From the IMG/VR virus record IMGVR_UViG_3300025168_000504, positions 1-27,834 of that record: a stretch of 27,834 nucleotides of DNA; one strand, written 5' to 3'. How positions within the stretch are numbered: the first letter of the stretch is position 1; every line of letters starts with the position of its first letter. This stretch comes from a virus. Its lineage: Duplodnaviria > Caudoviricetes. Below, in pieces: positions 1,890 through 23,338 of this stretch. The notes below the pieces were generated by a model, which searched no databases, was not told the DNA's origin, and saw nothing but the letters and a program-made list of their open reading frames with translations. The position numbers and the translations under genes are program-made.

Positions 1890-2239
1890 CACGGAGCGAC
1901 CGGCCAAGTGACGTTCCCTAGAACGCCGTTGCTATCGAGGGTTGGACTACTGCTCGTGGCGGGCAGGTTTCTAAGCGCGACCCGATACGCTTTCCAAGCG
2001 TCTGTCAGGGTGAGGTCTGATGATGCTCGCCAGTCACACTCGGCCAGTTTTCTGTCCCGTTGCCGCCGCAATTCCGCCATCGGAGCAGCAGATTCGAGGG
2101 CACTTTTTTTATTATTAATGTCAGCTTCAGAAGGCTTTGCCGCTGCATCGAGCCAAGTCAGGCCGGAATATTCGTCGCCGCTCCACTTCCACTCTTCTCC
2201 GGGGCGCAGTGCCGCTAAAGCTTGTTGTTTAGTGGTCAT
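1889..2239 (-). CDS. Tail fibre assembly chaperone (XkdW-like N-terminus plus Phage_tail_APC-like C-terminus)
   Basis: Motifs ALRPGEEW and LRRQRDRKLAECDW...WKAYRVALRNLP...VTWP; directly downstream of the tail fibre with ATGA overlap. Confidence 0.85.
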   Translation of the reverse strand: MTTKQQALAALRPGEEWKWSGDEYSGLTWLDAAAKPSEADINNKKSALESAAPMAELRRQRDRKLAECDWRASSDLTLTDAWKAYRVALRNLPATSSSPTLDSNGVLGNVTWPVAP

Positions 2240-4332
2240 GGTGCAAACTCCATAATTGTTATTAGTGCGCCAGATCGAAGGTTATTGGCACTCCCGTTAC
2301 TGCCATAATTTGACATAAATATGCCAAACGGCAGGGCGCTAGTACCGCCAGCCGCCGCACTATAGCTAAGAGTAAAAGAGCCGTAATCTCCGTCACGATC
2401 TGCGCCGTAACAACCTACTACATCACCGGCATACAAGGTCGCAGTATTGTCCGATGCTGATGCTCGCATTTGAATGTTGATGGCAGCGGTATCGTAATTG
2501 TAACCATGATCGCCTAGCAAAAAACCACTGCATGTAACGTATAGTATGTGGCTCGCAGAAGTCGGGGTGATGGAAGCATCAAGGCCAGTATCCTGCAAAG
2601 TATTGCTGGTGCTTCCAAAATTACTGGCTAACTTGGCAGTAATGAACTGCGTGCATAAGCCGCCACCCGGCGCAGCAGCAAAAACTGGAACGCTGCCCGC
2701 GCCCTGACTAGTCAATACTTGGGTAGCGCTGCCAGCGGCCACATATGCTGGATTTCCTGAAGCGTCGTATGTAATGAGGTTCCCGTCAGTTCCGGGTGCC
2801 ATTTTCGCCAAGGTCACCGCGTCATCCGCGATCATTGCCGTGGCGACCTGACCGTAGGCTGGGTCAGTGCCGTCGCTCTTGAGCACGGTATTTGCGCTGC
2901 CGACCGCAAGTCTTGCAGTTGCGTTCGAGCTGTCGCGAACAATGACGTCGCCGCGTGTAGTCATAGGGTCGGCGAGATCGCCCGCGTTGCCCGTTCTTAC
3001 AAACTGAACGCTAACACTGTCAGAGTTGCTTATGGTCCCTGCGGATAGAACGTGCGTTGCCGCAACTTTGGAATATGTCGATGCGCTCGTGACAGCGCCG
3101 GTTACATTAAAGATATGGAAATTTTCGGGGGCCGTGTTTTTCTTAATCGTAATTGTGCCGCGCAGCGCTGTGTTTGTACTGTCATCCCAGCTATCGACAA
3201 AGCTGTTAATGGATGCACCGCCCGCCTCAACATCATCGACATAGACAATCGTTGCGCTCGACGCCGTGCCATTATTGAGATGGATTTTTCCGGCTCCTTG
3301 ATCACTATCTGCTGTCGCAGTCGAGAAGATCATCCGCAAACCCGGCTCGTCAGCACGCGGGCCAGTGCTGCCCGTACTGCCCGTTGATCCGGTATCGCCT
3401 TTATCCCCGGTTCGTGCAAAAGAGAGGCGGATGCTGTCCGTATCGCCGAAGGTTCCCTGACTGTCTACATGAGTGACCGCAAGCTGAATAAAACCACTAC
3501 TGTCTGTCAGGCCAGTGATATTGTAGACGGCATAGTTTGCCGGAGTGCCGGGCTCGACTAAACGGACGTAACCTTTTATTGTAGAGGTGCTGTCGTCAAA
3601 TCCCTTCAGCCAATCTTCGACGTTGGGGTTGCCGGTATCCGCAGTCTGATCATCTAGAATTATGACCGACGCCGAACTAGGGGTGGCGTGGTTCAGCCGC
3701 AGCTTGCCAACACCGGGATCAGCGATTGTTGTCGTAGTACTAAAAGTATACTTCGGCATCGTCGCTGAAGCCTCGTTGGCCGCTGTAACTGCTGATGCCG
3801 CTGCCGCAGCAGCGTCGCTTTCTGCTGACGATATTTGCGAAGACGTCGGGCCGGTCGTGTAGCCCGTCCCCGCAGCGTTGACTATAAGGGCGGTGTTAGC
3901 CGTCAGTGTTAGAGGAAGTTCAATATCTGTGAGGGCCGACGACACGGGAAAGCGTGGCATACGGTTAAGCAACTCAACCTTATCCTGAGATAGCTGTGTA
4001 AGTTTATCGTAGGCTCCCTCAAGTATCTCAGGCTGAACACCACCCCGGTTCGCAAGATCCACCTCCTGCGTCTGCGGAACTGCGCGGCTGAATGTAAGCT
4101 GCTCCCCGCTGGCCGGAGCAACACCCATTGTGATGTTTCCGCCTGACGCCGTACCGACGCCGGATACCGTGTAGTTCGTCGTCAACGTCTGCACCGTCTC
4201 GACGTTAGCGGCGTTCTTTAAGGTCACCACAATGTGGGTCTGATCTAAGATGCGGAAGTCGTAGGCGAACACGGTCGTAGACCCGTTGCCGCTGTATGGC
4301 CCTGTCCGCGCTGTTTGGCTAGATATCGTCAT
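2236..4332 (-). CDS. Tail fibre protein (698 aa)
   Basis: N-terminal T7 gp17-like attachment motif GPYSGNGSTTVFAYDFRI...LEGAYDKLT; Ala/Thr/Ser/Gly-rich; duplicated internal domain, short collagen-like stretch, MTTRGDVIVR motif; GGAG SD upstream; followed by a chaperone gene. Confidence 0.9.
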   Translation of the reverse strand: MTISSQTARTGPYSGNGSTTVFAYDFRILDQTHIVVTLKNAANVETVQTLTTNYTVSGVGTASGGNITMGVAPASGEQLTFSRAVPQTQEVDLANRGGVQPEILEGAYDKLTQLSQDKVELLNRMPRFPVSSALTDIELPLTLTANTALIVNAAGTGYTTGPTSSQISSAESDAAAAAASAVTAANEASATMPKYTFSTTTTIADPGVGKLRLNHATPSSASVIILDDQTADTGNPNVEDWLKGFDDSTSTIKGYVRLVEPGTPANYAVYNITGLTDSSGFIQLAVTHVDSQGTFGDTDSIRLSFARTGDKGDTGSTGSTGSTGPRADEPGLRMIFSTATADSDQGAGKIHLNNGTASSATIVYVDDVEAGGASINSFVDSWDDSTNTALRGTITIKKNTAPENFHIFNVTGAVTSASTYSKVAATHVLSAGTISNSDSVSVQFVRTGNAGDLADPMTTRGDVIVRDSSNATARLAVGSANTVLKSDGTDPAYGQVATAMIADDAVTLAKMAPGTDGNLITYDASGNPAYVAAGSATQVLTSQGAGSVPVFAAAPGGGLCTQFITAKLASNFGSTSNTLQDTGLDASITPTSASHILYVTCSGFLLGDHGYNYDTAAINIQMRASASDNTATLYAGDVVGCYGADRDGDYGSFTLSYSAAAGGTSALPFGIFMSNYGSNGSANNLRSGALITIMEFAP
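2980..3753 (-). repeat. Tandem duplicated ~115-aa domain in the tail fibre, separated by a Gly-X-Y stretch
   Basis: Copy 1: YTFSTTTTIADPGVGKLRLN...FDDST...VTHV...FARTGDKG. Copy 2: MIFSTATADSDQGAGKIHLN...WDDST...ATHV...FVRTGNAG. Spacer: GDKGDTGSTGSTGSTGPR. Confidence 0.85.
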
Positions 4333-4381: not shown

Positions 4382-7300
4382 CTAGTCTTCTAACCGGCGG
4401 CGTAGCTTATCTTCACTGGCCGGACCCAGTAAAAGATCCATAGGTGAAGCACCTTCTACCTCATCAAGAAGGTTTCCGAGACCACCAGCAGTTCTGTTGG
4501 GCTGCACGGCAGGTATGCCCTTCAGTACTCCGAGCAACATAACGTAGGGGGCGAGCTTCTTAGCCCTGTCTGACCACACACGCTCGTCATCGGGAACCTT
4601 TGCATTTTCGTCTTCAACAAAAAGTTCCGGTACTTTTTTAGCTACACCAGATATAGCTTTGTCAATGGTTTCCCACGCAATAGTGCCTGCGCCCCCGCTG
4701 TATCCAAACCCACTTGCCCAGCCAGAAGACATCTCACGTAGCACTGGTATAGACCCTGTAAAAGTAGACAAACTTTCCCGTGCTATAAACTTTAGCATGG
4801 CGTGCTCTCTTTCTCCGGTTTTAAGATCTTCCTCTTCCCAATCAGGAAGCTTTCCCCGAACTAAGCCTACGCCTACAGAGGTTAAAGCCAGCAAGACAAA
4901 CATGCGCGTCGCAGCCCGTGCTATAGCAGCCGTAGGTCGCGTGGTTATATTGTCACGGAACTCTACGCCCATACCACGTTGCGTAGCGTACCACGCCGCA
5001 AACCATGTGTAGAACATGAGGAAGGGTTTCAGGTACGCCTTACGCTGAATGGGAGACAAGTCCTTCAAAGCTCCGGCAGATTGGCTGAGGCGAATTACTC
5101 GATCTGCGTATTTGACTGCGCGAGAAATGTCATTGGGGTTCGAGCGCAAAGATGTATTGTAAGCCGCTGTCCACACCGGCATATCCACGCTGTAGAACTG
5201 AACTTGCGCGATAGCCTGCATCGCAGTCCGCTGTATTACAGGTAGAACCGAGGTCTTGCCCTTGAGGTTGCGGAGGGCTTCATCCACGTTTTGATCGATA
5301 TTCTCACGCCTAAAGCGCATCTCGCCGGACACTTCCATAATCCACCGGGCGTGCTGTCCGTCCAAAGCCTTCAGACTACCAAAGGCCATATCTTTCTGCA
5401 GCATGGCAGCGTTCTTCGGGGTATAACCCACATCAGCAAGGATGCGGTCTTGACCGTTTATTATCCCTAGCGTCTGCATACCCAATGTAGTGTACGATGC
5501 GCCCAGAACGGCGACTGTCGTGTTTGTATATATCTGATTAAACAGCTCCCCCACTGCCCCGAGGTCTGTCGTATCGTTACTATTCACGGCCAATGCGGCA
5601 AGCCACGCCCGCAACTCTTTATAGTAGGCAGCGCCAACTTTAATCTCTACAGCAGCCTTAATATCTGGCTGGTTTAATATCTTGTTGCCGTTCTGCACTG
5701 CCTCGTAGTGTGTAATGAAATGAATGGTGTTCCGAAAACTGCTAGCTAGTTTGTCTATGTTCATAGTGATCGGCGCGGCATAGCCCGTTCGAGCTTTAGT
5801 CATCGAGCTGTTTACACTAGCCCGCCCAGCTTCGGCCTGCATCAACTGCAGAGCGTCTTTCTGCTCTGCATCAGCAGAGGCCCCCGCAACACTCTTGTCG
5901 TACATAAGCGGGAAGTATCCTCCCGTTACGTCCCCAAACTTAGTGGTAATCGTTCTTGGTTCTACACGGCCCGGAGATACGCCGTTTGTTTTGCGGTAAA
6001 TCGCATCAACCGCAGGCCACAATTTTTCTGCGTGCGCCCACACCGTTTTAACTAGGCTCCACTCTGCTTCTGTAAGCTGATCAAACGCGGTGTTCAATAT
6101 ATCTTCACTGATGTTCCACCCCGCACCCGTAACCTTGGTGTCTGCGTCTCCCCCCATACCCCGAATAAGCTTGTCGAGGTTACTTTCGTTTCCGGCGTTG
6201 AGGGCAAGCATGACAAGATTGCCGCGAGTGATACGCATACCCGGCTTACCTAGACCACCCAAAAGGCTAGGGTTTACAGCTTTTCCAAAACTCTTTTGCA
6301 CGCTCTTCGGCAGAGCAGCTACCAGCGCCCCGATTAAGTCGGACACTTCCAACTGCAATTCCTGAGATTGCACTGCCGCTGCACTAAACGGCTCGTACAG
6401 GGCTTGGTGCCACGGTCCCAGTACTGACCCATCCATTGCCTCTAGCAGCGCCTCGATTTTAAGTAATTGTCCGTCGATTGAGGCCATAAGAGATAGCGCT
6501 TTGAAACCGGTGATATTTTCTTCGGATGCGCTTTTGGCCCTGAACCTACTTACAAGAGTTTCTTTTCTTGCCGAAAGGGTGGTTAACAGCTCCGCTTTCA
6601 AAAGGCTTAGCTGTACGGCGTCTTCGCCTTTAAGGGCTCGCTTCGCATTGCGTCCTTGCGTGTCGTATCGTTTGATTACCTCGTGCAACTGCAAGAAGCG
6701 CAGATAGCTCATGCCCCTAATACTGTTATTTGGATTTGTTTCCGGGTCTAACAAGAAGTCGGGGACACTTAGCAATGCGCCGTCCTGCTCCTGCCTAGTT
6801 TCTATAAAGCTCTGTAACTCCGCTATCTCTGTTGTCCGCTCTGCTCTACCTGCAGCGCCGCCTTTAAAGTTAACGCTTTTAAGGATTGTCTTAATAACAT
6901 CTACATATTCGGCCTCGATAGACGGGAACTTCGCACCCGGTTTCGAGAATGTTTTCATATACGCGCTTTTCTTATCTACGTCGCGCTGTGCTTTAAGGGC
7001 TTCTGTAGCCATGTAGTGGTTAACAAGGCGGTGAAATTGGTGCTTGTAAGCCTCGGTGCGGTCGCCGCGCTTTAAGGCGGCACCTGCCAGATCAGCGTGT
7101 TTCTTCTCTGCTTGAATATATTTAACAGGGCGGATGTCTTTTGTAGCGGCTGCAAGGAGACTGTCTACGGCGTACTGGCGTACAAACTTTTGTTTAAACG
7201 CAGGCTCCGTTGTTCTCAAAGCCTGTAACTCTGCAGCTAGAACTTGAGCTGTCTTGTCTATATGAACGCTATCTACCGCTTCGTACATGCTGTCGAACGC

Positions 7301-10300
7301 GCCGTGGGTTTCCTCCATCTTGCTCTCGACTACTGCCTCTACCGCATCAGCGTAAGGCGCAACCTCGACAAGCTCTGCAATCATACTTATTACATCTTCG
7401 TAGCCAAAGGCAGCGGCTACTATGGCGGGGGCTTCGCCTCCCTCCATGTACAAGGTCTTACCAGCAACTTTAGGCATATCGGATAAGGAATACCCTTCAG
7501 CCTGCAAGACTTCTACCAGAGCAGTTTCGTCCATACGAGCAACTGCCTCGCCGTCAGGGAGAACAGATCCGTCAGCTAGGCCCAACTCCGTTATCGCGTA
7601 CATCAAACGGTAGACTGGTAGGGCCGCAACCTCCTGCCCTACTTCTGGTCGCAGTGCGTCTTTATTGTCTTTCCACCACTTTGTCAGCGTGCGCTTATGG
7701 TCTTGATTAGTTTTAGATAACTGCTTTGCTCGACGGGCCTCACCGGCTTCGGCAATGTTCTTCTGGTAGGCAGCAAACTGCGTCGGCGTCATACCGGCTT
7801 GCTCGGCGGTTTGTAGAAGAGGGGCCATACTGTATTGCCCCTCAACAATTGTGATCTCCTCATCCGAAGACAACATTCTATCTACGACACCCGTAACTTC
7901 TGGGGAAAATTTTACATCGAGGCCCGTAAAGCGCCTGTAAACGCTGCCTATCCACACTTTTAACTGAGAGAAGATGTTGCCAAGGGCGAGACTTGGAGCG
8001 CGTGCCGTAGCAAAGTAATCTTCTGCGCCGCGAGCAAATTGTTCGTGCATGGCGACGCTAAGGTATCGGCTGGGGCCTTCGCCGCGCAGCTCGCCGGATC
8101 TGGCATAAGCCGAGACTTGAGCCTCGGTCATCTGTTGCAGGGCAGCGACGCTGTCTTTGTCCTTGTCCTTCTTGGCGCGACGGACGGCCTCCTCGCGCAG
8201 CTCCAGAGGGCGGCTAGCCCACCAATCAGTGACGGTCTTAAAGTCTTGCTGGAAACCACCACCTACGGCGAGGGCGTCTGCCTTGAGCTGCTCCAGCCAG
8301 AAGTGACCACTTTCGTGCAGGAAGGTAGTCGGATCGGCCTTTTCAAATATCTGTATAAGGTTGACCGGGTTACCGTCCTGATCGTTAATTAAGTCTGAGG
8401 GGGTAAATCCGCCTCTGGGGCCTGCTGCTCCGCGCTGCTGCTCGAGGGCTGGTTGTTGTCCGCCTCGCTCGTACTGGTCGATGGCTGCGGCGACTTCTTG
8501 GGACGCTTGATCCCTGACATCACGATACCGCTGCCGAGCCACTCCCGCACTTCCTGCTGGGTCATTTCTGTCACTGGCATAGTCGTAATCCTTTTTCTCT
8601 GGGAACGCCGCCTGTAGTCGAGCGGCCTTAACATCATACTCTGAAGCAAGCGCATTATCAACAGCGTCTGCAAAACCACGCGGATCAACACCTTCTTCTA
8701 GGATTAGTGTCATCTGACCGTCTGTCGTTGACTGGCCGCCGATCTGAGGAAAACCCTCAATGCCGCGCAGGGTTTGATAGATCGCATCGATCTCCTGCAG
8801 GCTTTTGTCGCCAACCTGTATACGAACAGCCCCAGCCTCAAACGACCCCTCAAAAGCGTCGGCTGACAGGGCGACCATACTATCTTGGGACAGCACAAAA
8901 CCCACAGCATTAGCGACGGCAGCGGGGTCACCGGAAGTTAGACGCAGAGAGAACGACGGGTTTGTGTCTTCTAGGTAGCTACCGATTTGAGGAGATACTG
9001 AACCTTCAGCTTCTGCTGCTTCTAAGACAGAAGGCAGAACACTCTTCGATACGGTGTCGCTGATTGCGAGCTGCGCTGCAGGGGGAAGGGCGTTCCACCG
9101 GGCAGACAGCTCTACATTATTAGGGTCCGGCGCGACCTCGAATATAACGTCGCCGGCAAAGTCTACTTCTTGGAAGAGTTCTCGGCCATTATCTTGGACG
9201 CCAGCTTGCCCAGTCCCTGCAGTACCTTCGGGTCCGACAGATCCAGCATCTTGTCCAGAGACGGCTCCCTGTCCAGATCCTCCTGCTCCATCTCCTTCAA
9301 TTCCTTCGACTTCATATCCTTGGCTCCTAAATATCCGCGCAAACGTGGTGTCGTAACTCTCGTTGAGTGAGTTTGCTGTGACGACAGGGATGCCGTCCGC
9401 ATCAACCTCTAACTCGTCGCGCAGACCGCCCCATAATTCTTTCTCAGGATACCATAACAGAGCCTGCAAGTCAGCAGTAGTAACATCGATACCCCGCTCG
9501 GAAAGTATCTCGCGGGCGCGCTGCCCGACAGCCTCGACCTGCTTTCTCTGCGTGCCGTTAGCAATTTGGTCTAGGGGCGTAGACAGATTAGATTTGATAG
9601 CTTTTGCTGCTCGCGCCCATGTTGGCTGCAGCTCTGTGGGGATGTTGGCTGATCCATAGGTTTCCTGTAGCCGCTTATATTCCTTAGACCATGCCGTTAT
9701 TAAACGGTTTGAGTAAGCAAGCAGCGCGTCGTCCGTCTTTCCGTACTCAGCCTTCCAAGGCTCGGGGGCTTTAAGCCCTGCAAGATCAGACAACAGCGCC
9801 TTACCCTCAGAGACTTCTTTATTAAGACGGCGCGTCTCGGCGCTAAAATCTTTCTTTGTCTGGCCTTCAAGTTGTCCGGCGCTCTTATGCGCCTCAAGAG
9901 CGGCCTCGGAAGATGCTAGGTCAGATCGAGCCATCTCAATAAGGTCTGGCGAACCCTGCTCATTTGACCGGGATTTAGAGATTGCGGCTTTTAACCTGCG
10001 CCGCTGTGCGGGAACCGCGTCCGGCTGTCCAATACTCTTACCCGTTAGACGGCCCCAAGTGCGGCGCATCCACAAGTCGATTGTCAGCGGGTCAAAATTT
10101 CCGTTGAGGTTCTGCCAGAACCCATTGCCAATCTTAGGTCCGAGCGTCGAAGATCCGTAGACCACAGCATCCTTGGCTGTGTTACCCGGCGGGCTATACG
10201 GTATACCCGCAGCCTTCATCTCCACTTCCCACTCCCGCACTGTCTTACTAGCGCGGAACATGGCATCTAGCGCAGTCATACGCTCCGCAGAAGTGTCTCC

Positions 10301-13300
10301 GGGCATAGCATTAAGCATCGGGAGAAACTTCTCGAAGTTCTTGCCCATCGCTGCTTGCTTGTCTCCGGTCCCCCACTCCTTCTTCATGGAGTAGTCGCCG
10401 GATTTTATACTCTCCACCATTTCGGAGAAAGCAGTGTCTGCTGCTGTGGCGTTAAGAGACACACTCAGGTTTTGTGACGTCACCGCCATGATGTAGGTGA
10501 ACGCGAAGCGCGCGTTGCTCGACGTACCGAAGCCAGCCTCGGCTGCTGCCGCATCATCTTGCAGCATCGGGTATTTAATAGAAGCGACGTCCATTGCCCG
10601 GAGAACGGCTTCTGAGTACCAGTCAGCGGCGTTACCTGTACTCTCAAGGGCGAGCTGCGCCTCAGCAGCCGTAAGCCTGCCAAGCTGATTTATCTGCTCT
10701 TCGGATAATACCTCAGTGAAATCAATTATGGCGTCGCCGTCGAACTGATCCTCAAGCCACTTCGCAGCCTTCTCGTTAGTACCCAGCCGTTTAGTAGGCA
10801 TTGCCTCGGGTCGGTAGATCGGGTTGATCCGGGCCGCTTCATCCGCCGTAAGGCCGAGAGCTTCTGGATCTTGTACGGTAGCGCGTGCCTGCTCTAACGC
10901 ACCGTCAGGCGCGTCTTGGAACAGGATGTTGGGATCAGCCGGGTCAAACGCGCCACGGTTAAACGTGGACTTGATCTGCGTCGGCTCGAACGCGATTATC
11001 TCCTTAGCGCGTTCGTTTATAATGCCGTCATAACCCTGCGCTTTTAGTTCTTCTATTCTCGATTGCGGAATATACGATGTTTCTGCGCCATAGACCGGAG
11101 GTCTACGGCCCGCCCCGACGTTCTGAATGCGCTCTTTTATAGAACCCCAGAATGTCTGATCGGTAATGACCAAAGGGTTCTGAATACTTAGGTAAACAGG
11201 GTAAATCGCTGGGCCGGTGCCTTTTCTACCAGACCCCGTATAAGCCGAGGCATAATTTGAATCGTCGGTAAAATACATACCGGCTTGCCCGAACTGCCGT
11301 AAATACTCCTGACGCTCGGTAGAACCAGAAGCTGTAGGGTCGAACGCCTTAATGTCGTACTGGGTGCCGTGGTAGACGACCAGCGGATTGCCCTCGGCAT
11401 CGACGACTTTACTCTCACCAAACCATTCCTTGAAGCGCGGCGTCTGAGTGATGTCTCCGCCAGCCTCAGCAAGCTCTGCCTGTAGAACCTCTGTAGATAC
11501 GCCGAACTCTTTGGCTGACTGCTCAAGAAGGTCTTGGCGCAACTGGACTGGGTCGCCTTCTGTGACGTCGAACAGCTCGGCGCTGTCGAGAAGGGCCTGA
11601 TCCCAAATGACCATCTCGTTAATAGACTTCTTCTCATGCCCACTAATACCGGCTTCGACAAGACGCTCGGTTCCGTTTTCAAGCTCGCTGCGTATGCGCG
11701 AAATTAAGTTGCCGACCGACTCATTTGCGCCAATCTCAATACCGGCTTCGGCGGCTAAGTCAGCAAGCGTCTGCTGCATTTCTGAAGACAGGTCAGAAAC
11801 ACGAGACATAAAATCGACAACACCGGATAAACTTTCGGCGGGGAGGCGCGCTTCGTAGCTACGCCCACCGCGTGCAAACTGTGTTGCTTGATTTCCGCCT
11901 TCTGTTGAGAAGTAGATGCCAGCAGTTTCTCTGGGGCTTGTAGAAGTTGGGTCGTTGGCGCGGCCCGTGAATGCGAGATCTAACTTACCGCCTTCAAGAG
12001 CTGGGCCGCCGTGGCGGAGAGTAACGACAGAAGAGGAGCTGTCTTTGCCTCGTATTGTATCCCACACAGAACGAAGTCTGCCTTGTTCAAGCGCAGAGGA
12101 CTGTGCTGCGGGCTGGCCTCCCTGTATCCGCAAGTTATCGGCCTCAAACAGAGCAGCAGCGTCTACTGGCTCTCCGGTTTCGCGGGCAATGCGGACGGCT
12201 CGGGCGGTGTATCGGCTTGCAGTTAAGAGGGCAAAGGCGTCGGACTTATCTGCGTCGTATCGACCAGTAGCCTTGATCTGCTCTGCTACTAAAGAGCGAA
12301 TAGCCGCTGCGTCATCCGCAAGCTTGTCAAGAACAGGCTTAGTAAGTTCTGGGCCTAGCAGCTTGTCAACTTCCTCTTTTAGAAAGTCTTCAATACGTAC
12401 ACCTTCTTCGACGGCTCTCTCCGCCTCATCTGGTGTTAGAGCGCCTTCTTCAAAAGTGGTGTGGCGGATCAAAGAGTCAAAACCGTCTTTACCTAGAATA
12501 TGGCGTATAAACGTCTCAGCGCCTATCTGGACATCTTGACCTTCGGCTGCTGCAAGCCTTACTTCTTCCTGCGTAAGGCCCAGCGTGTCTATTGCGTCTC
12601 CATCCTGATTAAATATTAATAAGTTTTCGGCACTAATATAGACGTCTGGGGTTCCCTCAGCAGCCATTCTATCGGCTAGGATGCTGGCTGCGGTGTCTAA
12701 TTTTTCAATGGGGATACCTGAGACAATGCCCGACAACTCCTCGTTACCGCGCAACCACTCTTTAAGTCTTTTATCGTCGGCACGTTTAAGAACATCCGCA
12801 TGTCCAGCAACAGTTAGCTGTAGACTTGTCATAAGCGGGCCGCTGCCTAAGATACCTTCAAGAAGCGCCTCTTGGAAATCGTAATTTCCAGTAGCAAGCC
12901 GTCCTGCGTACAGTTCGCCGAGGGATTCTCCCAAAGTATTTACTCCGGTAGCCCTAGAAACATTCAAGGTCATAGACCGCGTAGGCTTTAGGGCAGCCGC
13001 AACTTTTATTCCCGTGAGGCTTGCAACGCTAATCGTAGCAGCGCGAACGCCTAGAAAGCGCTTCATTTCTTGGTTGGCAACGACAGAGGCGTCTGTCTCG
13101 TTTCGAGCAAATTCAGCTCTACCCGAAATTGTTCTAAGATCGATCTTTCCATCGGTTATGTCTAAGATAGATTTATAAAGCTTAGGGTCATTAATGTTTG
13201 CTAATTCTCGCAGCGCACCATGCGCCGTCATTAGAGAGAGCCCAACGGTGGGGGCACCTAGCGACGTTGCAACTAACCCAGCAGCTATGCCGGGGAAACT

Positions 13301-14401
13301 CTCCGCACTTGTAATCGTCGCCCACTTCGCCGTGGCGACTGGATTTGCAGCTAAATAGGCAAGCGTCTCTCCTTGATCAAAAAACCCATCTCCTTTAGGC
13401 ATACCGTCAATCAGAGCCTGCACGTCTGAAGGGTACTTGTAGTCTTTACCCGCTTTAATTATAGCTTTGGTGGAGATGTCAAACACCCGCACAGCTTCGG
13501 CTCTAAGCGCAGCGGCGTCTTCTGGGTCAGTAACGGACGCAGCTATTGCGGCGGCGGCACCGGCTCCCGTTTTGCCTACAACCTCAACGGGAAAAGCGAG
13601 CGGTTTAGCCACACCGAGTATTCCTAAATTTAAGCTCCAATTCTCAAATGCATCAACAAACGCCTCGCCCGGCTTACCGGCAAACTTCGCTCGGCTTGCA
13701 GCACTGCGTCTTTGAGCTTCGCCTACAACGCCCCAAAAAGTTTGAATAGAAGATTTGACTGGGGCTTCAATTACCGCATCTACAAAAGATACGTCTCGAC
13801 GGCGCGCAGCCAGAGCCTCTGCTGTACGGTCTTCAGGAGACATCATTATACGAAGGTACGTCGCTATCGAGCCCTCAGCAGAGAACATCAGTGGGATATC
13901 CCCACGCAAAATGGCCGCCTCTTCGGCGCTTTGCGCTAAACGCTCTCTAGTCGCGCTTTCAAGGGCCAAAGCTTTACGCAGCCCCGGGGTTCCTATAATA
14001 GATTTGAGTTGGTCGTCGGAATAACCTGATAAAACTTCTTTGCTAAGGCCGGAGTACGTCTTGATTGCGATCTTTTCGATGGCCGCACGATTGCTGTTTA
14101 TATCTGAAGTTAGGTCGAAGTTTTGGAGAACAGCTTCCGATAGTGGGTTTATCGTCAAACCTCGGTCAGCGGCTTCGGTATTGGGAAGTGCGCCACCCAT
14201 AAAATTCCATTGGCGCTCGGGAGCAACCACTGGCTCTTGCCCAGCCTTGTATGGCGCGACGCGACTAGGATCTAAGGGAGGGGGAGCTGGGGCTTCGGGA
14301 ATGGGTTTAGACGGGAAAACAATTCTAGGCTTTGGAGCCGCAACATCTGGCGCAACATCTGGCGCAACAGATGGCTCAGACGGAAAATTATAGACGGCCA
14401 T
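4382..14401 (-). CDS. Giant internal virion/DNA-ejection protein, polyvalent multi-domain protein (3339 aa)
   Basis: Third and largest gene of the ejection-protein block, between tail tube/GNAT and tail fibre (T7 gp16 position). Hydrophobic helices near aa 370-395; central effector cassettes; HESGH metallopeptidase; long helical C-terminus with GGYFPLMYD...TKARTG. Confidence 0.9.
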   Translation of the reverse strand: MAVYNFPSEPSVAPDVAPDVAAPKPRIVFPSKPIPEAPAPPPLDPSRVAPYKAGQEPVVAPERQWNFMGGALPNTEAADRGLTINPLSEAVLQNFDLTSDINSNRAAIEKIAIKTYSGLSKEVLSGYSDDQLKSIIGTPGLRKALALESATRERLAQSAEEAAILRGDIPLMFSAEGSIATYLRIMMSPEDRTAEALAARRRDVSFVDAVIEAPVKSSIQTFWGVVGEAQRRSAASRAKFAGKPGEAFVDAFENWSLNLGILGVAKPLAFPVEVVGKTGAGAAAAIAASVTDPEDAAALRAEAVRVFDISTKAIIKAGKDYKYPSDVQALIDGMPKGDGFFDQGETLAYLAANPVATAKWATITSAESFPGIAAGLVATSLGAPTVGLSLMTAHGALRELANINDPKLYKSILDITDGKIDLRTISGRAEFARNETDASVVANQEMKRFLGVRAATISVASLTGIKVAAALKPTRSMTLNVSRATGVNTLGESLGELYAGRLATGNYDFQEALLEGILGSGPLMTSLQLTVAGHADVLKRADDKRLKEWLRGNEELSGIVSGIPIEKLDTAASILADRMAAEGTPDVYISAENLLIFNQDGDAIDTLGLTQEEVRLAAAEGQDVQIGAETFIRHILGKDGFDSLIRHTTFEEGALTPDEAERAVEEGVRIEDFLKEEVDKLLGPELTKPVLDKLADDAAAIRSLVAEQIKATGRYDADKSDAFALLTASRYTARAVRIARETGEPVDAAALFEADNLRIQGGQPAAQSSALEQGRLRSVWDTIRGKDSSSSVVTLRHGGPALEGGKLDLAFTGRANDPTSTSPRETAGIYFSTEGGNQATQFARGGRSYEARLPAESLSGVVDFMSRVSDLSSEMQQTLADLAAEAGIEIGANESVGNLISRIRSELENGTERLVEAGISGHEKKSINEMVIWDQALLDSAELFDVTEGDPVQLRQDLLEQSAKEFGVSTEVLQAELAEAGGDITQTPRFKEWFGESKVVDAEGNPLVVYHGTQYDIKAFDPTASGSTERQEYLRQFGQAGMYFTDDSNYASAYTGSGRKGTGPAIYPVYLSIQNPLVITDQTFWGSIKERIQNVGAGRRPPVYGAETSYIPQSRIEELKAQGYDGIINERAKEIIAFEPTQIKSTFNRGAFDPADPNILFQDAPDGALEQARATVQDPEALGLTADEAARINPIYRPEAMPTKRLGTNEKAAKWLEDQFDGDAIIDFTEVLSEEQINQLGRLTAAEAQLALESTGNAADWYSEAVLRAMDVASIKYPMLQDDAAAAEAGFGTSSNARFAFTYIMAVTSQNLSVSLNATAADTAFSEMVESIKSGDYSMKKEWGTGDKQAAMGKNFEKFLPMLNAMPGDTSAERMTALDAMFRASKTVREWEVEMKAAGIPYSPPGNTAKDAVVYGSSTLGPKIGNGFWQNLNGNFDPLTIDLWMRRTWGRLTGKSIGQPDAVPAQRRRLKAAISKSRSNEQGSPDLIEMARSDLASSEAALEAHKSAGQLEGQTKKDFSAETRRLNKEVSEGKALLSDLAGLKAPEPWKAEYGKTDDALLAYSNRLITAWSKEYKRLQETYGSANIPTELQPTWARAAKAIKSNLSTPLDQIANGTQRKQVEAVGQRAREILSERGIDVTTADLQALLWYPEKELWGGLRDELEVDADGIPVVTANSLNESYDTTFARIFRSQGYEVEGIEGDGAGGSGQGAVSGQDAGSVGPEGTAGTGQAGVQDNGRELFQEVDFAGDVIFEVAPDPNNVELSARWNALPPAAQLAISDTVSKSVLPSVLEAAEAEGSVSPQIGSYLEDTNPSFSLRLTSGDPAAVANAVGFVLSQDSMVALSADAFEGSFEAGAVRIQVGDKSLQEIDAIYQTLRGIEGFPQIGGQSTTDGQMTLILEEGVDPRGFADAVDNALASEYDVKAARLQAAFPEKKDYDYASDRNDPAGSAGVARQRYRDVRDQASQEVAAAIDQYERGGQQPALEQQRGAAGPRGGFTPSDLINDQDGNPVNLIQIFEKADPTTFLHESGHFWLEQLKADALAVGGGFQQDFKTVTDWWASRPLELREEAVRRAKKDKDKDSVAALQQMTEAQVSAYARSGELRGEGPSRYLSVAMHEQFARGAEDYFATARAPSLALGNIFSQLKVWIGSVYRRFTGLDVKFSPEVTGVVDRMLSSDEEITIVEGQYSMAPLLQTAEQAGMTPTQFAAYQKNIAEAGEARRAKQLSKTNQDHKRTLTKWWKDNKDALRPEVGQEVAALPVYRLMYAITELGLADGSVLPDGEAVARMDETALVEVLQAEGYSLSDMPKVAGKTLYMEGGEAPAIVAAAFGYEDVISMIAELVEVAPYADAVEAVVESKMEETHGAFDSMYEAVDSVHIDKTAQVLAAELQALRTTEPAFKQKFVRQYAVDSLLAAATKDIRPVKYIQAEKKHADLAGAALKRGDRTEAYKHQFHRLVNHYMATEALKAQRDVDKKSAYMKTFSKPGAKFPSIEAEYVDVIKTILKSVNFKGGAAGRAERTTEIAELQSFIETRQEQDGALLSVPDFLLDPETNPNNSIRGMSYLRFLQLHEVIKRYDTQGRNAKRALKGEDAVQLSLLKAELLTTLSARKETLVSRFRAKSASEENITGFKALSLMASIDGQLLKIEALLEAMDGSVLGPWHQALYEPFSAAAVQSQELQLEVSDLIGALVAALPKSVQKSFGKAVNPSLLGGLGKPGMRITRGNLVMLALNAGNESNLDKLIRGMGGDADTKVTGAGWNISEDILNTAFDQLTEAEWSLVKTVWAHAEKLWPAVDAIYRKTNGVSPGRVEPRTITTKFGDVTGGYFPLMYDKSVAGASADAEQKDALQLMQAEAGRASVNSSMTKARTGYAAPITMNIDKLASSFRNTIHFITHYEAVQNGNKILNQPDIKAAVEIKVGAAYYKELRAWLAALAVNSNDTTDLGAVGELFNQIYTNTTVAVLGASYTTLGMQTLGIINGQDRILADVGYTPKNAAMLQKDMAFGSLKALDGQHARWIMEVSGEMRFRRENIDQNVDEALRNLKGKTSVLPVIQRTAMQAIAQVQFYSVDMPVWTAAYNTSLRSNPNDISRAVKYADRVIRLSQSAGALKDLSPIQRKAYLKPFLMFYTWFAAWYATQRGMGVEFRDNITTRPTAAIARAATRMFVLLALTSVGVGLVRGKLPDWEEEDLKTGEREHAMLKFIARESLSTFTGSIPVLREMSSGWASGFGYSGGAGTIAWETIDKAISGVAKKVPELFVEDENAKVPDDERVWSDRAKKLAPYVMLLGVLKGIPAVQPNRTAGGLGNLLDEVEGASPMDLLLGPASEDKLRRRLED
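7850..8437 (-). other. Zincin-like HExxH metallopeptidase domain within the giant protein (MPTase-like)
   Basis: RGGF...IQIFEKADPTTFLHESGH (H2029-H2033, nt 8303-8317), with a downstream HEQFARGAEDY (E2120 as candidate third ligand). Boundaries approximate. Confidence 0.75.
8389..8580 (-). CDS. Overprinted small ORF (63 aa) in the +1 frame of the giant gene
   Basis: AAAAAGGA SD, with AAGGA 8 nt before ATG 8580. Product MPVTEMTQQEVREWLGSGIVMSGIKRPKKSPQP... has a protein-like N-terminal half. Located at the 3' end of cassette 4. Confidence 0.6.
   Translation of the reverse strand: MPVTEMTQQEVREWLGSGIVMSGIKRPKKSPQPSTSTSEADNNQPSSSSAEQQAPEADLPPQT
8438..9169 (-). other. Cassette 4 of the giant protein (aa 1745-1988), uncharacterised alpha/beta domain, possibly SAM-lyase-like
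   Basis: Bounded by ELFQ and ALEQ. Motif IGSYLEDTNPSF...AVGFVLSQDSMV loosely recalls the G-x-Y...Q-D-x-hydrophobic pattern of phage T3-type SAM lyases. Confidence 0.35.
9163..9315 (-). CDS. Overprinted small ORF (50 aa) in the +1 frame of the giant gene
   Basis: TAGGAG SD, with AGGAG at 9324-9328, 8 nt before ATG 9315. Product MKSKELKEMEQEDLDREPSLDKMLDLSDPKVLQGLGKLASKIMAENSSKK. The host frame here becomes a Gly-rich linker, and the stop falls just after the LFQ boundary. Confidence 0.65.
   Translation of the reverse strand: MKSKELKEMEQEDLDREPSLDKMLDLSDPKVLQGLGKLASKIMAENSSKK
9170..10888 (-). other. Cassette 3 of the giant protein (aa 1172-1744), helix-hairpin-helix DNA-glycosylase-like domain
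   Basis: Ordered motifs DWYS, AVTSQNLSVSLN, LGPKIGNGFWQNL, PLTIDLWM, DLQALLW. GPK...TIDxW...QAxxW mirrors the HhH-GPD pattern (HhH Lys, then conserved Asp). Confidence 0.55.
10916..11518 (-). other. Cassette 2 of the giant protein (aa 962-1162), ART-PolyVal-type ADP-ribosyltransferase domain
   Basis: FKEWFGESKVVDAEGNPLVVYHGT...GMYFT...YASAY...IYPVYLSIQNPL...GYDGII...EIIAFEPTQIKS, the typical signature of this family. Confidence 0.85.
11534..12082 (-). other. Cassette 1 of the giant protein (aa 774-956), divergent ADP-ribosyltransferase-like domain
   Basis: TLRHGG...AGIYFS...ATQFA...SYEARL...AGISGH...NEMVIWD has the same motif order (H-G, G-x-Y-F, G-x-x-G, E-x-V-x-W/F) as cassette 2. Confidence 0.65.
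14341..14369 (-). repeat. 12-nt direct repeat x2.4 encoding VAPDVAPDVA at the N-terminus of the giant protein
   Basis: caacatctggcg caacatctggcg caaca on the + strand. Confidence 0.7.
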
Positions 14402-17117: not shown

Positions 17118-17563
17118 TAAGCTGCCCTCATCATATGAAGTGTACCTGACTTAGTGTAGCCCATGCGGTCAAGGATGCGGCCTAGTGTGGCATTCTCAAT
17201 TCCCGCAAAAACAGAGATAACAATCTCATCAGCGCGGGGCGCGGCCCACTCTTTAAAAGATTTTAATAAACGAACACCTTGTCCTCCCGAACGATGCTCA
17301 GGCAGGACATATAAGATAATGTCGCGAGCTACCTGTACGTCAGTCCACAAGTCAGTAGATACCTCGCCAAGGAATACCCCAATTAATTTATCGTTGAGAA
17401 CAACACCTTTAGTGTAAACAGACGTATTTAAGATTAAATCGCACAAGATATACTCTGTGCGCTCTTCGTGCAGAGCATAATCTTTGTACACGCTTTCCAC
17501 ATGCATGGAACGAGCGATATGCAGTAGCTGAGGTACGTCGGCTTGGGTCAAATCTCGGATCAT
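17117..17563 (-). CDS. GNAT-family acetyltransferase (148 aa)
   Basis: MIRDLTQADVPQL...LYVLPEHRSGGQGVRLL (acetyl-CoA-binding motif A)...RMGY; occupies the conserved slot between tail tubular B and the ejection proteins. Confidence 0.9.
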   Translation of the reverse strand: MIRDLTQADVPQLLHIARSMHVESVYKDYALHEERTEYILCDLILNTSVYTKGVVLNDKLIGVFLGEVSTDLWTDVQVARDIILYVLPEHRSGGQGVRLLKSFKEWAAPRADEIVISVFAGIENATLGRILDRMGYTKSGTLHMMRAA

Positions 17564-20352
17564 CAGTTACCCCCAATCAACACGTCCGGCACCAAAGCTA
17601 GGAGGTTCATCGGCAAAGGATCTCGCTGTTGCACGATAACGTATCCGTCTTTATTCCAGCTTGGTGACATCGTAACGCCTTTGTCTCCAGTGACCCACTC
17701 GGGAGGTTGGCCGTATTGAGCCGAAAGGCCGTATTTTATTTCGCGCATGTGGTCCCGGTCGGGTCCGTACCATCCGCCTAGTGTAGTCGCAAACCTCAAA
17801 CTAAGGCGACTAATTTTCTTGTCTCTGCCTTGTATGGTGTCGCCGACGTTGCCGTTGTCTATGCGAAGAGACTGGATCTCCGACGTGTAGGGTAGACCGA
17901 TATGCACCCTGCTCGCGGCGCTAGGAAGCGTCACAGAGCCATTTGCTATAGTAAGGTCGCGTATGACATAGCCGTTAGCTAGAGCGACCACTGTCTGGCC
18001 TTCTAGGTGCCATAAGCCGCCTAGTGTGGTCACAGCTTCACGAACTTCACCGCTTGAGCTGTAAACCTTGAAGGCAGTGCTGTTGACGTTAACGCCGTTG
18101 TTCTGAAGTTGGAATGTGTGGGTCGTAGCCCCAGCTACAGTATAGCCGGTTCCCTCAAGCTCAGTGTCGTATGACCACCCACGAGTAGCAGCGCTGTCAA
18201 CGACCTTAATACCCGTTATGTCAACGACATCTCCGTTGCTAAACCCGTGAGAAGTTGCGGTAACGACAACCGGATTTGCATTGGTAAAACCCGTAATTGT
18301 TACCGGGCTGTCTAGCGTCAAACCGCTGTCCACAAAATAACTGTCTTGCACATCCGATATGTCGCGGCTCCGCATACGCTCAATGTATTTGACAGTAGCA
18401 CCACCGATGATGCGGTCTACGACGTAGTACGTGAAGTCGTCGTCCCCTTCCCGAATAGCGGCAGCAGATTTAAAGTCGCCCTTAGTAGTATGGCGATGCC
18501 ATCCAAATACGTTTTGTTCTCGAGAGTACGTCATGCCAAGGAGCACGCCGTCATCCCGCACACACCAGATTATGCTGTGTGGTGCCTGAGCGTATGTCCA
18601 ATCTACAATGGTGTCGTTGTCGAACAAGTGGCGGGCCAACACCGACAGATCGTTACCGGCGTAGCTGTCGCTCTCAAACTTATATCCAAGATCGCGGACG
18701 GACTGACCCGGTTGCATATAGATGACGATGTCGCCAGCTACGATGGGGGGTAGACTTGTAGAGCCGTAGTATGACTGCGGCTTAATCTGAATACCGGCAG
18801 GGGTAATAACGCCGTCTACGCCCTGAACCAACCACTCACCACCCGACGTCAAGATTACAAGATCGGACAGAGAAACGTAGTGGCGTATCTCATTGACCTG
18901 CCTACTCGCGAGGGTCACCGTTATTGCGTCGTCGTCTCGCGCTGGGCTGGAGACGGCGAGATTAGTAAAATGCGCTGTCTGCGTCATCCACACACGCTGT
19001 GTGTAGCTGTCGCTGTTACCGAAAAGTTTGCGCTGCTCGTGATAACCTGCCGTAGACGGAAAATTACCGGTCCCCACAAAAGGGTTTCGTGTACGAGGAG
19101 GGGTGTCGCTTACCTCTGGGCCAATGTTTATGTCAGTAAAATCAGTCAACTCAGTGCGGCCAATAAAACCAAAGAGGCCGTTCTTCTCCCGGTATACGGT
19201 GTAGCTCTCCGCATTAGCTGCTGCGGTCCACGCTACCGTATTATCTGGCTCGAGGTGACTGTTTGTGATCTTGATAAACATCGGGAACACGCTGCCCCCA
19301 GACGAGTAAGTTGTGTAATTCGTCGTATTGACTTGCGCTCCGGCGTTGTCAGTAAGCTCAAAAGTAGTACTACCCTTGTTGGAAACTTTAAAAACTTGGC
19401 CGTTAGCCTCGGTCATCCCCACTACGCCGCTGATATACACGTCGTCGCCATTTAAAAGCCCGTGCGATCCCGAAGTCGTAACCACACCCGGATCTGCTTT
19501 TGTTATGGCAGTAATACCGCTACCTACTGCCGGGGCGGTGCCGCGAAGGCTTTCTTCCCCGCTGTCAAGATTGGTTGCGGTCACAACGTAGCGGTATGTC
19601 GTCGAACCAGTGGTGTTTACCGTGACCCCTAACCCTGTAGGAAAGGCTTGCTTTGGTTGAAAATCTATCTCCGTAATTGTCCAAGCATCGTGACCTGTGC
19701 GGGCAATATCTCGGGGAGCGTAGTCTGGGTGCGTAACGGTTAACACGTCCGCTGATTGGACATACTGCAGATCAAAGATGTCGGCGGCGGTGTAGGGCGT
19801 GGTCAACTCGAAGACCTTCTGCGCGGTTCCTGCAGATCCGTAAGTTGTAAACGCAGTGCTATTTATGTTTGCTCCTGCGTAATCAGTTAGGGCGAAGGTG
19901 TTCGTCGTGACACTAGCGGCGCGTAGAAACCTACCGTTAAGCTCTGTCATGCCAACTACGCCAGTGATAAACACGTCGTCACCGTTGCTAAATCCGTGGC
20001 TGCTTGACGTGACTACCGCAGGGTTTGCCTTAGTTACCGCACTAATGGTTTTTGCGCTTCCAGTCAGAACCTGACCGCCGTCTTTATAGACACGCATGTA
20101 CAGGTTACCGAACTCTAGAATGTAGGTCTGAGTAGTGTTGAACTCAAACGGTATTAAACGAACGGCAGTAGATGGTGTCTTAGCTGGGGAAACGTACTCC
20201 AAACCGGGTCGGTTAGTCAGACCCCCATGTACTTGCACAAAGAAATTTTCAGCCTTGTAAACAGAGGATTTATATTTGTCGATATCAACACGAGCCGCAA
20301 TAGCATCGCTGACCTCACCCCCTGACAAATTTGCCTGAATAACTTTTGTCAT
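17563..20352 (-). CDS. Tail tubular protein B / nozzle (T7 gp12, P22 gp10-like; 929 aa)
   Basis: QANLSGGEVS...GGLTNRPG...RLIPFEF...LEFGNLYMR...QSADVL...GWHRH...VDSG...QQRDPLPMNLLA signature; follows tubular protein A. Confidence 0.92.
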   Translation of the reverse strand: MTKVIQANLSGGEVSDAIAARVDIDKYKSSVYKAENFFVQVHGGLTNRPGLEYVSPAKTPSTAVRLIPFEFNTTQTYILEFGNLYMRVYKDGGQVLTGSAKTISAVTKANPAVVTSSSHGFSNGDDVFITGVVGMTELNGRFLRAASVTTNTFALTDYAGANINSTAFTTYGSAGTAQKVFELTTPYTAADIFDLQYVQSADVLTVTHPDYAPRDIARTGHDAWTITEIDFQPKQAFPTGLGVTVNTTGSTTYRYVVTATNLDSGEESLRGTAPAVGSGITAITKADPGVVTTSGSHGLLNGDDVYISGVVGMTEANGQVFKVSNKGSTTFELTDNAGAQVNTTNYTTYSSGGSVFPMFIKITNSHLEPDNTVAWTAAANAESYTVYREKNGLFGFIGRTELTDFTDINIGPEVSDTPPRTRNPFVGTGNFPSTAGYHEQRKLFGNSDSYTQRVWMTQTAHFTNLAVSSPARDDDAITVTLASRQVNEIRHYVSLSDLVILTSGGEWLVQGVDGVITPAGIQIKPQSYYGSTSLPPIVAGDIVIYMQPGQSVRDLGYKFESDSYAGNDLSVLARHLFDNDTIVDWTYAQAPHSIIWCVRDDGVLLGMTYSREQNVFGWHRHTTKGDFKSAAAIREGDDDFTYYVVDRIIGGATVKYIERMRSRDISDVQDSYFVDSGLTLDSPVTITGFTNANPVVVTATSHGFSNGDVVDITGIKVVDSAATRGWSYDTELEGTGYTVAGATTHTFQLQNNGVNVNSTAFKVYSSSGEVREAVTTLGGLWHLEGQTVVALANGYVIRDLTIANGSVTLPSAASRVHIGLPYTSEIQSLRIDNGNVGDTIQGRDKKISRLSLRFATTLGGWYGPDRDHMREIKYGLSAQYGQPPEWVTGDKGVTMSPSWNKDGYVIVQQRDPLPMNLLALVPDVLIGGN
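18043..20049 (-). repeat. Three dispersed copies of an ~76-86-aa inserted domain (E1-FCCH-like phage domain) at ~19822-20049, ~19288-19515 and ~18043-18300
   Basis: ISAVTKANPAVVTSSSHGFSNGDDVFITGV / ITAITKADPGVVTTSGSHGLLNGDDVYISGV / ITGFTNANPVVVTATSHGFSNGDVVDITGI, each ending TFxL...N[ST]TxxxxY. Confidence 0.88.
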
Positions 20353-22666: not shown

Positions 22667-23323
22667 TTAGTTGGCTGCGAACATCGTTGGATACATCTTC
22701 TCCAAACTATCTCGGCCTTCGATTTTATTGTCTCCGGTGACGAGATCGCTTTCAGAGATGGCGCGCCCAACACGATAAAAGAGGCGAATTACCTCTGGAT
22801 GGTTCCCCAAGCCGAGCCCGTCAGGGTTATCAGCAGAGGGGGCGTCAATCAGCTTAGCCAGTTGCGGACTACCAAACGTGTCGATGGCCCGCTTTGCCAG
22901 CCCAAGGTTCTCGTCGAGGTTCTCCCCGCCAAGCTCCTTGTCAGCCTTAGTGTCTTCAGCCCAGTGATTAATGCGTTCACTAAACTGTGTAGACATCTCT
23001 TCCAGTGCTGCCGCACTGCGTTGGATGTCGTATTCCACAAGTTGCTGGAACTGTTTCTGATTAAGACCTAATTCCTTGGCGGTCTCGCCAAAGACTTCGA
23101 TTTTATCCGAATCAACTTCAACACCTTCTGGTGGCTCGAACTCGTACTTTTCAGGTACTACGTTGTCGCCTTCTCCTTCTCCCTCGTCACCCGACAGCAG
23201 GGTCTTGGATTCTTCTTCGCCAGCGACTTCTTCAGTCTGCTCGGCGGATACCTCTTCGGTTACAGGAGCTTCTTCAGCCACTGCTTCCTCAACTACTTCT
23301 TCAACTACTTCTTCGTCTGCCAT
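22667..23323 (-). CDS. Capsid scaffolding protein (218 aa)
   Basis: Acidic N-terminus, PEKYEF...AKELGLNQKQFQ...W...DKELGG...GLGNHPEVIRLFYRVGRAISE. GGAGG SD favours ATG 23323 over 23335. Confidence 0.85.
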   Translation of the reverse strand: MADEEVVEEVVEEAVAEEAPVTEEVSAEQTEEVAGEEESKTLLSGDEGEGEGDNVVPEKYEFEPPEGVEVDSDKIEVFGETAKELGLNQKQFQQLVEYDIQRSAAALEEMSTQFSERINHWAEDTKADKELGGENLDENLGLAKRAIDTFGSPQLAKLIDAPSADNPDGLGLGNHPEVIRLFYRVGRAISESDLVTGDNKIEGRDSLEKMYPTMFAAN

Positions 23324-23338
23324 GTTCTCCTCCATTGG

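Follow-up and report, generated by a model that had tools for sequence, protein, structure and literature searches.

The DNA analysed here, referred to below as the window, is an entire linear virus record (IMG/VR record IMGVR_UViG_3300025168_000504; Duplodnaviria, Caudoviricetes) of 27,834 bases, with a completeness estimate of 61%. Scans of its open reading frames (ORFs) against Pfam and PHROG identified a podovirus structural module, similar to that of phage BPP-1, on the minus strand. The gene order is terminase, portal, an acidic ORF of 222 amino acids (aa), major capsid, Bbp16- and Bbp19-like genes, nozzle, GNAT, T7 gp14-like, a 695-aa ORF, a 3339-aa ORF and tail fibre. Our subject is the 3339-aa ORF, which on sequence grounds belongs to the known polyvalent and Bbp10 class, and a short word, L-[E/F]-Q, found at the joints between its parts. 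These parts are as follows, with positions in the window and (-) for the minus strand.

4382..14401 (-): Bbp10/IVP-D-like ejection (polyvalent) protein, 3339 aa; ORF call, PHROG 9880 (E 6e-203) and gene order
12083..14401 (-): N-terminal core (aa 1-773), with ...DNLRIQGG-linker-LEQ at its end; close homologues conserve aa 640-762, partial match to PHROG 9880
12083..12091 (-): junction 1, LEQ, aa 771-773; linker kept in homologues, sequence changes directly after Q
11519..12082 (-): cassette 1, aa 774-961, divergent ADP-ribosyltransferase (ART)-like domain (weak assignment), ending LRQDLLEQ; in 7/48 close homologues, at first or second position
11519..11542 (-): junction 2, doubled LRQ-DL-LEQ, aa 954-961; homology blocks end at 957-964
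10916..11518 (-): cassette 2, aa 962-1162, ART-PolyVal ADP-ribosyltransferase, tail FDPADPNI-LFQ; PF18760, E 1.7e-28
10889..10924 (-): junction 3, doubled LFQ-DAPDGA-LEQ, aa 1160-1171; homology blocks begin or end at 1150-1179
9170..10888 (-): cassette 3, aa 1172-1744, predicted fold of the helix-hairpin-helix (HhH)-GPD DNA-glycosylase superfamily, with a disordered linker before LFQ; model confidence (predicted local distance difference test, pLDDT) 84
9170..9178 (-): junction 4, LFQ, aa 1742-1744; blocks end at 1741 and start at 1744, previous 38 residues with pLDDT <50
8438..9169 (-): cassette 4, aa 1745-1988, acidic domain; recurs as a mobile block, in 12 stored sequences and 3 phage records
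8438..8446 (-): junction 5, LEQ, aa 1986-1988, directly before the peptidase first strand (RG-x-hydrophobic); word in 42/48 close homologues
7802..8437 (-): zincin-like metallopeptidase domain, aa ~1989-2200; HExxH in homologues, model pLDDT 83.5
8303..8317 (-): HESGH zinc-binding motif, aa 2029-2033 (general-base E2030); motif conservation
8027..8047 (-): HEQFARG, with predicted third zinc ligand E2120; E invariant in 94/94 aligned rows
4385..7801 (-): C-terminal core, aa 2201-3339, the likely ejection-conduit part; PHROG 9880 (E 2e-153), 47 phage records including BPP-1 Bbp10

The class assignment draws on position and content. The ORF has a late virion-gene position, with the gp14-like and 695-aa genes on one side and the tail fibre gene on the other. 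Unrelated domains occur in a single chain (ART-PolyVal, an HhH-like fold and an HExxH domain), and domain content differs among homologues, as in polyvalent proteins. The ORF is also homologous to the Bbp10 cores and syntenic in position. Note that BPP-1 bbp10 is matched by both the peptidase region, which is 31% identical, and the C-terminal region. By homology to IVP-D, the protein would be packaged and ejected into the host. Among genome-borne sequences, the nearest relatives (43% over the peptidase) come from alphaproteobacterial assemblies, a weak hint as to that host.

There are seven copies of L-[E/F]-Q in the protein, starting at L771, L959, L1160, L1169, L1742, L1986 and L2036. Hence, all lie within aa 771-2036 and none in aa 1-770 or 2039-3339. 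Composition alone predicts 1.39 copies, and at least seven arose in 8 of 10,000 shuffles, a figure that overstates significance on its own because the motif was picked after looking. The real support for the word is in the homologue tests described below. The word is absent from the six other large ORFs of the window that we checked, capsid and portal included. The copy at L2036 (WLEQ) is inside the catalytic helix of the peptidase model (helix 64-86) and its Q is present in only 22 of 94 aligned rows. Hence, WLEQ is not a junction. The other six motifs make five joints, two of them doubled. In the models, the linker ahead of LFQ1742 is disordered, and L1986-E1987 are assigned to a strand with modest confidence (block pLDDT 63).

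A preliminary description of this DNA had reported the six junction motifs, and its residues, nucleotides and codons are all correct. The motif count also bears out its statement that one further copy (WLEQ) exists, with none in the first 770 residues or the C-terminal part. The same description saw the motifs as joints between four recognisable domains. Boundaries defined from homologues do fall at the motifs (blocks end at 774, 961 and 1741, and start at 1744 and 1986), while a library match was obtained for just one of the four domains, ART-PolyVal (aa 1001-1148). Similarly, L-[E/F]-Q is present at the joints here, but the word used across the family is wider: [L/F/Y/M]-x-Q.

We turn to close homologues. 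A search with aa 1990-2420 was used to obtain the best 120 of 454 proteins, and the close-homologue set comprises the nearest 48 in which both flanks could be mapped (P0001-P0047 and P0051). Between conserved flanks, these proteins have a variable stretch of ~700-1500 aa, in which the same cassettes recur in different orders and unrelated folds end in the same word. The linker is often shared, with divergence directly after Q; in P0013, P0014 and P0016, for example, PTGTLEQ leads into three different cassettes. At the left flank, [LF]xQ was no more than 25 aa away in 34/48 proteins, and at the right flank in 42/48, compared with 13-16% of random windows. In the variable region, L[EF]Q was observed 98 times against 20.4 expected (4.8-fold). 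The equivalent values for the N-terminal core are 17 and 16.2 (1.05-fold), and enrichment on the C-terminal side is 2.5-fold, a figure that includes the helical WLEQ. A de novo search of the 48 proteins returned L.Q and F.Q as the top two gapped pairs.

Breakpoints were also defined by BLAST, blind to the motif. Starts were within 5 aa of [LF]xQ in 70/145 cases, and ends in 56/98, against a background of 10%. The control word [LF]xE was found at 12/145 starts and 12/98 ends. For interior breakpoints only, [LF]xQ was present at 32/60 (at least 80% identity), 42/107 (70%) and 68/206 (60%). Hence, the proposal that breakpoints in homologues coincide with LxQ is supported (32/60 interior breakpoints, 10% background), and the modular, swappable payload envisaged in the preliminary description is evident as gain and reordering of cassettes. 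Note that the 59 segment groups we delimited were cut partly using the motif, and are over-split, so provide neither a family count nor evidence for the motif.

Among more distant relatives, 307 peptidase-bearing sequences reduced to 254 distinct, 241 anchored (13 without the RG anchor were dropped) and 204 non-redundant examples. In 144/204, [LF]xQ occurs no more than 22 aa upstream of the peptidase first strand; three control windows gave 16, 16 and 21. Allowing Y at the first position increased the count to 165/204 (control windows 24, 21 and 22). About a third of the 31 misses are mis-anchored on an ART tail, by eye, and were kept as misses. The first residue of the word (P3) is L at 93 of 173 sites, F at 46, Y at 26 and M at 8, and the middle residue is degenerate. 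Words in cultured phages are FDQ...FYQ (BPP-1), LAQ (Jess A), YNQ (Carin1), LRQ (DC33) and FFQ (Octadecabacter BD1). In L137:1-4848, a GNAT-like cassette (by eye; aa ~272-425) lies within the peptidase, after the HESGH helix and before that of the third ligand, and is bracketed by FAQ and LFQ.

Some of these relatives merit separate comment. Ten cargo-less forms (L046, L056, L071, L083, L110, L122, L127, L128, L153 and L179) have a linker of 13-19 aa between N-terminal core and peptidase; seven keep the word and three read LEK or YEA. The record of Limnohabitans phage DC33 (L191, PQ492659.1) is classed as Inoviridae, yet has 39 kb and a 3125-aa Bbp10-type protein, and is probably misclassified. 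Xylella phage Usme (L189) has a second HExxH domain directly upstream of the peptidase.

Codon use at the junctions was compared at 110 loci and follows background. Leucine uses all six codons, glutamine is encoded by CAG 80 times and CAA 30 times (background 73% and 27%), and flanking third positions have no more than 0.25 bits. Within the window, no DNA repeat family links the joints. Since codon use is that of the background, the word acts at the level of protein, as the preliminary description had argued from the differing codons of the six motifs.

The ART cassette provides the strongest test of how word and peptidase go together. A search with this cassette gave the best 120 of 770 proteins, of which 116 were new, for a combined set of 236. 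We defined Bbp10-type peptidases by a hidden Markov model (HMM) score of at least 40 bits, and the end of the cassette as FDPxxPxI plus three residues. With a Bbp10-type peptidase, the tail is LxQ in 43/46 cases, from 20/21 proteins; the other three tails are offset (FQD or RQG). Without such a peptidase, LxQ occurs in the same register in 0/348 tails, from 0/95 proteins. These tails read RFS, RYS, RFA, RKS, DEA and so on, and are usually alike within one protein. A register-free count over the 236 proteins gave 63/65 with the Bbp10-type peptidase and 21/287 without; of these 21 exceptions, a single Pseudomonas prophage cluster accounts for 15, and the other 6 read RFSQ or RFKQ.

Related cores can carry unlike tails. 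The ART cores of P0187 and P0189 are 85% identical, with tails QAS and LYQ respectively, and the nearest neighbour of 41/65 Bbp10-type cores belongs to the other class. Hence, inheritance of an ART core does not bring its tail along. A FastTree phylogeny of 270 cores provided 9 independent pairs with branch support, of which an average of 8.9 went the same way and 0 the opposite (p ~0.004); the 48 state changes on this tree are probably inflated by poor resolution. In P0137, P0144 and P0172, the peptidase is 133-140 aa from the C-terminus and the Bbp10 C-terminal core is missing. Their tails are still LxQ, which suggests that the word goes with the peptidase and not with the scaffold. We conclude that, in these sequences, the junction word is linked to peptidase type by co-variation.

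Other tails were seen alongside these. Eight proteins of ~5000 aa (P0136, P0138, P0139, P0142, P0143, P0145, P0148 and P0156), several labelled Pseudomonas aeruginosa, have a different zincin (HEVGEH) and mixed tails (ILLEQ, ILLTQ and ILHRD), and are exceptions to the code. In P0228 and P0235 the ART tails end I-D-E-A/G. The P0228 peptidase is a diverged Bbp10-like one (13 bits, DLSTLVHEGGH), which raises the possibility of a shift in specificity from Q to E. By eye, other zincin clusters are flanked by F/Y-S words of their own.

The domain next to the last joint looks like a zincin. HExxH is present in 120/120 homologues (the best 120 of 454) and the downstream Glu pattern in 255/262 contexts, the remaining 7 being close variants; note that many peptidase loci were fetched with a TFLHESGH pattern, so HExxH conservation is partly by construction. 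The model has strands, followed by the HExxH helix (H2029, E2030 and H2033; helix 64-86), with E2120 in helix 151-171. Hence, by model and conservation, HExxH in a helix is paired with Glu in a downstream helix, as expected of zincins. A sequence search against the PDB found nothing significant, with SprT appearing only at E 2.2. Searches of a viral fold library, with the peptidase and cassette 3, found only similar uncharacterised phage proteins.

Of the cassettes, the second is the clearest, exceeding the PF18760 cut-off with 100.5 bits (threshold 31.2). Such ART-PolyVal domains are predicted to modify host proteins (Iyer et al. 2017, PMC5512222). Cassette 1 may be a distant version; the best match to the ART-core HMM has E 0.06 and an hhalign probability of 33%, and no Pfam match, PF18760 included, was found at E 10. 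Cassette 3 was folded from 26 sequences. In structure comparison (VIA), the model matched a queuine salvage enzyme (Z 9.4), Ogg (9.3), ROS1 (9.1) and NTHL1 (8.4). Seven HhH-family entries, with Z 8.2-9.4, span the domain (188-233 residues aligned, root-mean-square deviation (rmsd) 4.0-4.4), although unrelated hairpin matches reach Z 9.0, the model being helical. Sequence identity with the superfamily is 6-12% and, unlike its members, cassette 3 has a long helical insert. The likeness is in the predicted fold and in an invariant pair, K1423 and D1442 (K252 and D271 of the alignment), 19 residues apart, as in OGG1. Cassette 3 may act on nucleic-acid bases. There is no Pfam HhH match, nothing significant in a PDB sequence search and no Foldseek PDB match; in the Atlas the cassette is DUF7178-like. 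Relatives also exist as standalone proteins of 482-574 aa. Cassette 4 has no usable match in Pfam, NCBIfam, PHROGs or the Atlas. It recurs in P0227, where the peptidase is of another type and the word in front of the cassette is PKFS. Roles for the cassettes in host takeover or anti-defence are plausible.

Our interpretation, to which we assign a probability of roughly three in four, is that the protein is a self-processing polyprotein whose zincin recognises [LFY]xQ. Self-cleavage, which we infer from comparison of sequences, is likely. A Bbp10-type chain with its swappable cassette array would be packaged, ejected like T7 gp16, and then refold. The resident zincin would cut at each word, separating the N-terminal core, the four cargo domains and a piece that combines peptidase and conduit. 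The freed domains, of 20-62 kDa, would act in the host cytoplasm, and a cut at the last site would leave the peptidase on the C-terminal core, or conduit. Cassettes would be exchanged by phage recombination and kept only if the linker gains the word of the resident peptidase. Cutting during or after ejection is likelier than before packaging, because an intact chain would carry the cargo into the capsid. We somewhat favour the bond after Q as the one cut, with that before L/F the less probable choice. The preliminary description had relied on 3C-type proteases for a cut after Gln; this analogy is not established, since a zincin could equally cut before Leu or Phe.

We also lean, if only slightly, towards a general protease-linker code in polyvalent phage proteins, with a word for each zincin, effector cassettes that pass between unrelated phages, tails rewritten to suit the new protease, and programmable injection platforms that would release anti-host enzymes at infection. 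LxQ would then be the word of the Bbp10 type, with RF/RYS, xKS, DEA and others elsewhere, and the cargo would include an undescribed HhH-glycosylase-like effector.

Several observations pull the other way from self-processing. Some concern the word. Roughly 50% to two thirds of the interior breakpoints do not coincide with a motif. The left joint is less strict than the right, with the word in those 34/48 close homologues and in 118/218 relatives with cargo, and P0003, P0006 and P0008 join a cassette without it. Among relatives with almost no cargo (linker no more than 62 aa), 10/13 keep the word and 3/13 are without. One of eight phage records checked, L190, has no word within 22 aa of the peptidase, and an ART-like insert (by eye) in the peptidase of Xylella phage Usme (L189, 7369-12534) has no flanking words. 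The 15 tails of the Pseudomonas prophage cluster, which occur without a Bbp10-type peptidase, hold LEQ, LTQ or LAQ shifted from the register by one residue. Note also that the ART tree was made by FastTree from short, divergent cores. Others concern the enzyme. Whole-domain fold matches are only to lethal-factor zincin domains, and are weak (Z 4.1, rmsd 5.2, 121 aligned; Z 4.0, rmsd 4.1, 127 aligned), and Foldseek against the PDB gave nothing at E 0.001. The N4 HExxH domain was placed in the same lethal-factor superfamily by Iyer et al. (PMC5512222). No catalytically dead HExxH relative was found, in searches that were anchored on that region and so favour intact domains. A search for peptidase-less forms among phages with the C-terminal core gave 47 records, whose names are those already obtained with the peptidase.

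The best surviving alternative, though an unlikely one, is that the word serves as a docking signal, which the peptidase domain, or a core element next to it, would bind without cutting. The word might then organise packing in the capsid, pace threading through the channel, or hold the peptidase inhibited until a host target is met. Logically, co-variation demonstrates recognition, rather than hydrolysis. There is also a precedent, which counts against our reading: according to Iyer et al. (PMC5512222), N4 vRNAP has an HExxH domain, yet is packaged whole and unprocessed, and the MPTase (metallopeptidase) region is needed for encapsidation. An N4 structure paper (PMC13434306) notes the HExxH motif, and a term search of its text found no vRNAP cleavage. 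The opposite precedent is P1 DdrB, with a C-terminal MPTase, which is reported to be processed, before packaging (PMC5512222). Furthermore, neither the general-base Glu nor any of the three predicted zinc ligands is lost among the relatives, in part owing to how the searches were constructed. The word at every joint of unrelated enzymes, the doubled joints and the standalone versions of cargo also fit release better than docking.

A role for some other protease, from phage head maturation or the host, is improbable. The 222-aa ORF (22667-23335, minus strand) carries the PHROG 458 label 'protease', and a further protease gene could be missing, since the window is ~61% of the genome. However, the ORF product has 57/222 acidic residues, no Cys, 2 His, no HExxH and no evident catalytic motifs, and Pfam and NCBIfam scans found no match. 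Acidic, lacking catalytic motifs, and encoded between the portal and capsid genes, it was judged scaffold-like and rejected as the cutter of the joints. The absence of L[EF]Q from capsid, portal and other large ORFs is also contrary to a head-maturation protease, and the word tracks the embedded peptidase type across diverse hosts and architectures.

Two further explanations are very improbable. In one, the word is what an integron- or shufflon-like site for DNA recombination, serving to swap cassettes, looks like once translated; this would suit homology that often breaks within a few residues of Q, but no conserved site was found, and the background codons at 110 loci, low information at flanking third positions and lack of a repeat family at the joints largely refute it. 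In the other, the word caps the ends of domains structurally, or composition has produced it by chance; this appeals to the choice of motif after looking and to FDPxxPxI being part of the ART domain family, but is refuted by ART-tail co-variation and the independent-pair test: the same tail has RFS, RYS, xKS, DEA and other endings in 348 cases elsewhere, unrelated folds share the word and control words are not enriched.

Two other ORFs of the window, both on the minus strand, have unusual features. The nozzle protein (17563-20352) has inserted E1_FCCH-like beta domains, detected as two Pfam stretches and three PHROG 584 stretches. The ORF at 3-1181, which runs off the window, has a signal-peptide-like start and a long Pro/Ala/Glu-rich tract, with no family match in our scans.

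The analysis turns a 2017 conjecture of processing by the MPTase into a prediction at residue level, testable in cultured phages whose hosts are harmless; Caulobacter phage Jess A (gp39), Cobetia phage Carin1 (gp32) and Limnohabitans phage DC33 are suitable. Reading the word along such giant chains also separates them into individual cargo domains, and yields a list of enzymes, mostly missed by Pfam, that are candidates for injection and for anti-host or anti-defence roles. If cleavage is true, a defined slot that delivers and releases protein cargo, together with phage DNA, would be a useful bacterial tool.

Self-processing, as such, is not a new idea, since autoproteolytic release of polyvalent-protein domains was proposed by Iyer et al. 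2017 (PMC5512222). The junction code was not found described. A search that did not cover most subscription journals, nor the Iyer supplementary alignments, turned up no publication in which these proteins are given a junction word or a cleavage site; no cleavage terms were found in the accessible text of PMC10172136. A phi24B protein, gp47, has a peptidase read as a peptidoglycan enzyme in bioRxiv 2026.04.10.717836. The polyvalent proteins of Iyer et al. resemble ours in being large, late-gene products that combine ART-PolyVal, other enzyme-like domains and an HExxH...E MPTase. Unlike here, no recognition word, fixed insertion site or co-variation of word and peptidase was found in the passages covered, and the main text does not contain 'linker', 'BPP-1', 'Bbp10' or 'glycosylase' (PMC5512222).

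A close known relative is Bordetella phage BPP-1 Bbp10, listed as an IVP-D ejection-protein homologue by Hardies et al. 2016 (PMC4819975, Table 2), who describe 'passenger domains' in such proteins. Bbp10, which is grouped with the epsilon15-group IVP-D ejection proteins, shares the gene position, the peptidase region and the C-terminal core with our protein. Bbp10 has words of its own, FDQ (606-608) and FYQ (766-768), around one 171-aa insert. Its annotation, 'crystallin beta/gamma motif-containing protein', mentions neither a peptidase nor a junction word, and it has 2052 aa and one cassette, compared with 3339 aa and four here.

Degenerate words that mark cuts are familiar from other viral systems. 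T4 gp21 cuts head cargo after L/I-x-E, and viral 3C-type proteases cut polyproteins after Gln. As in the T4 head cargo (Alt, which is injected, and the internal proteins) and 3C polyproteins, a short degenerate word would mark the cuts that free injected or functional units. Unlike gp21 and 3C, the candidate protease here is a zincin in the same chain, its substrate would be a variable cassette array and its predicted chemistry is not that of a serine or cysteine protease.

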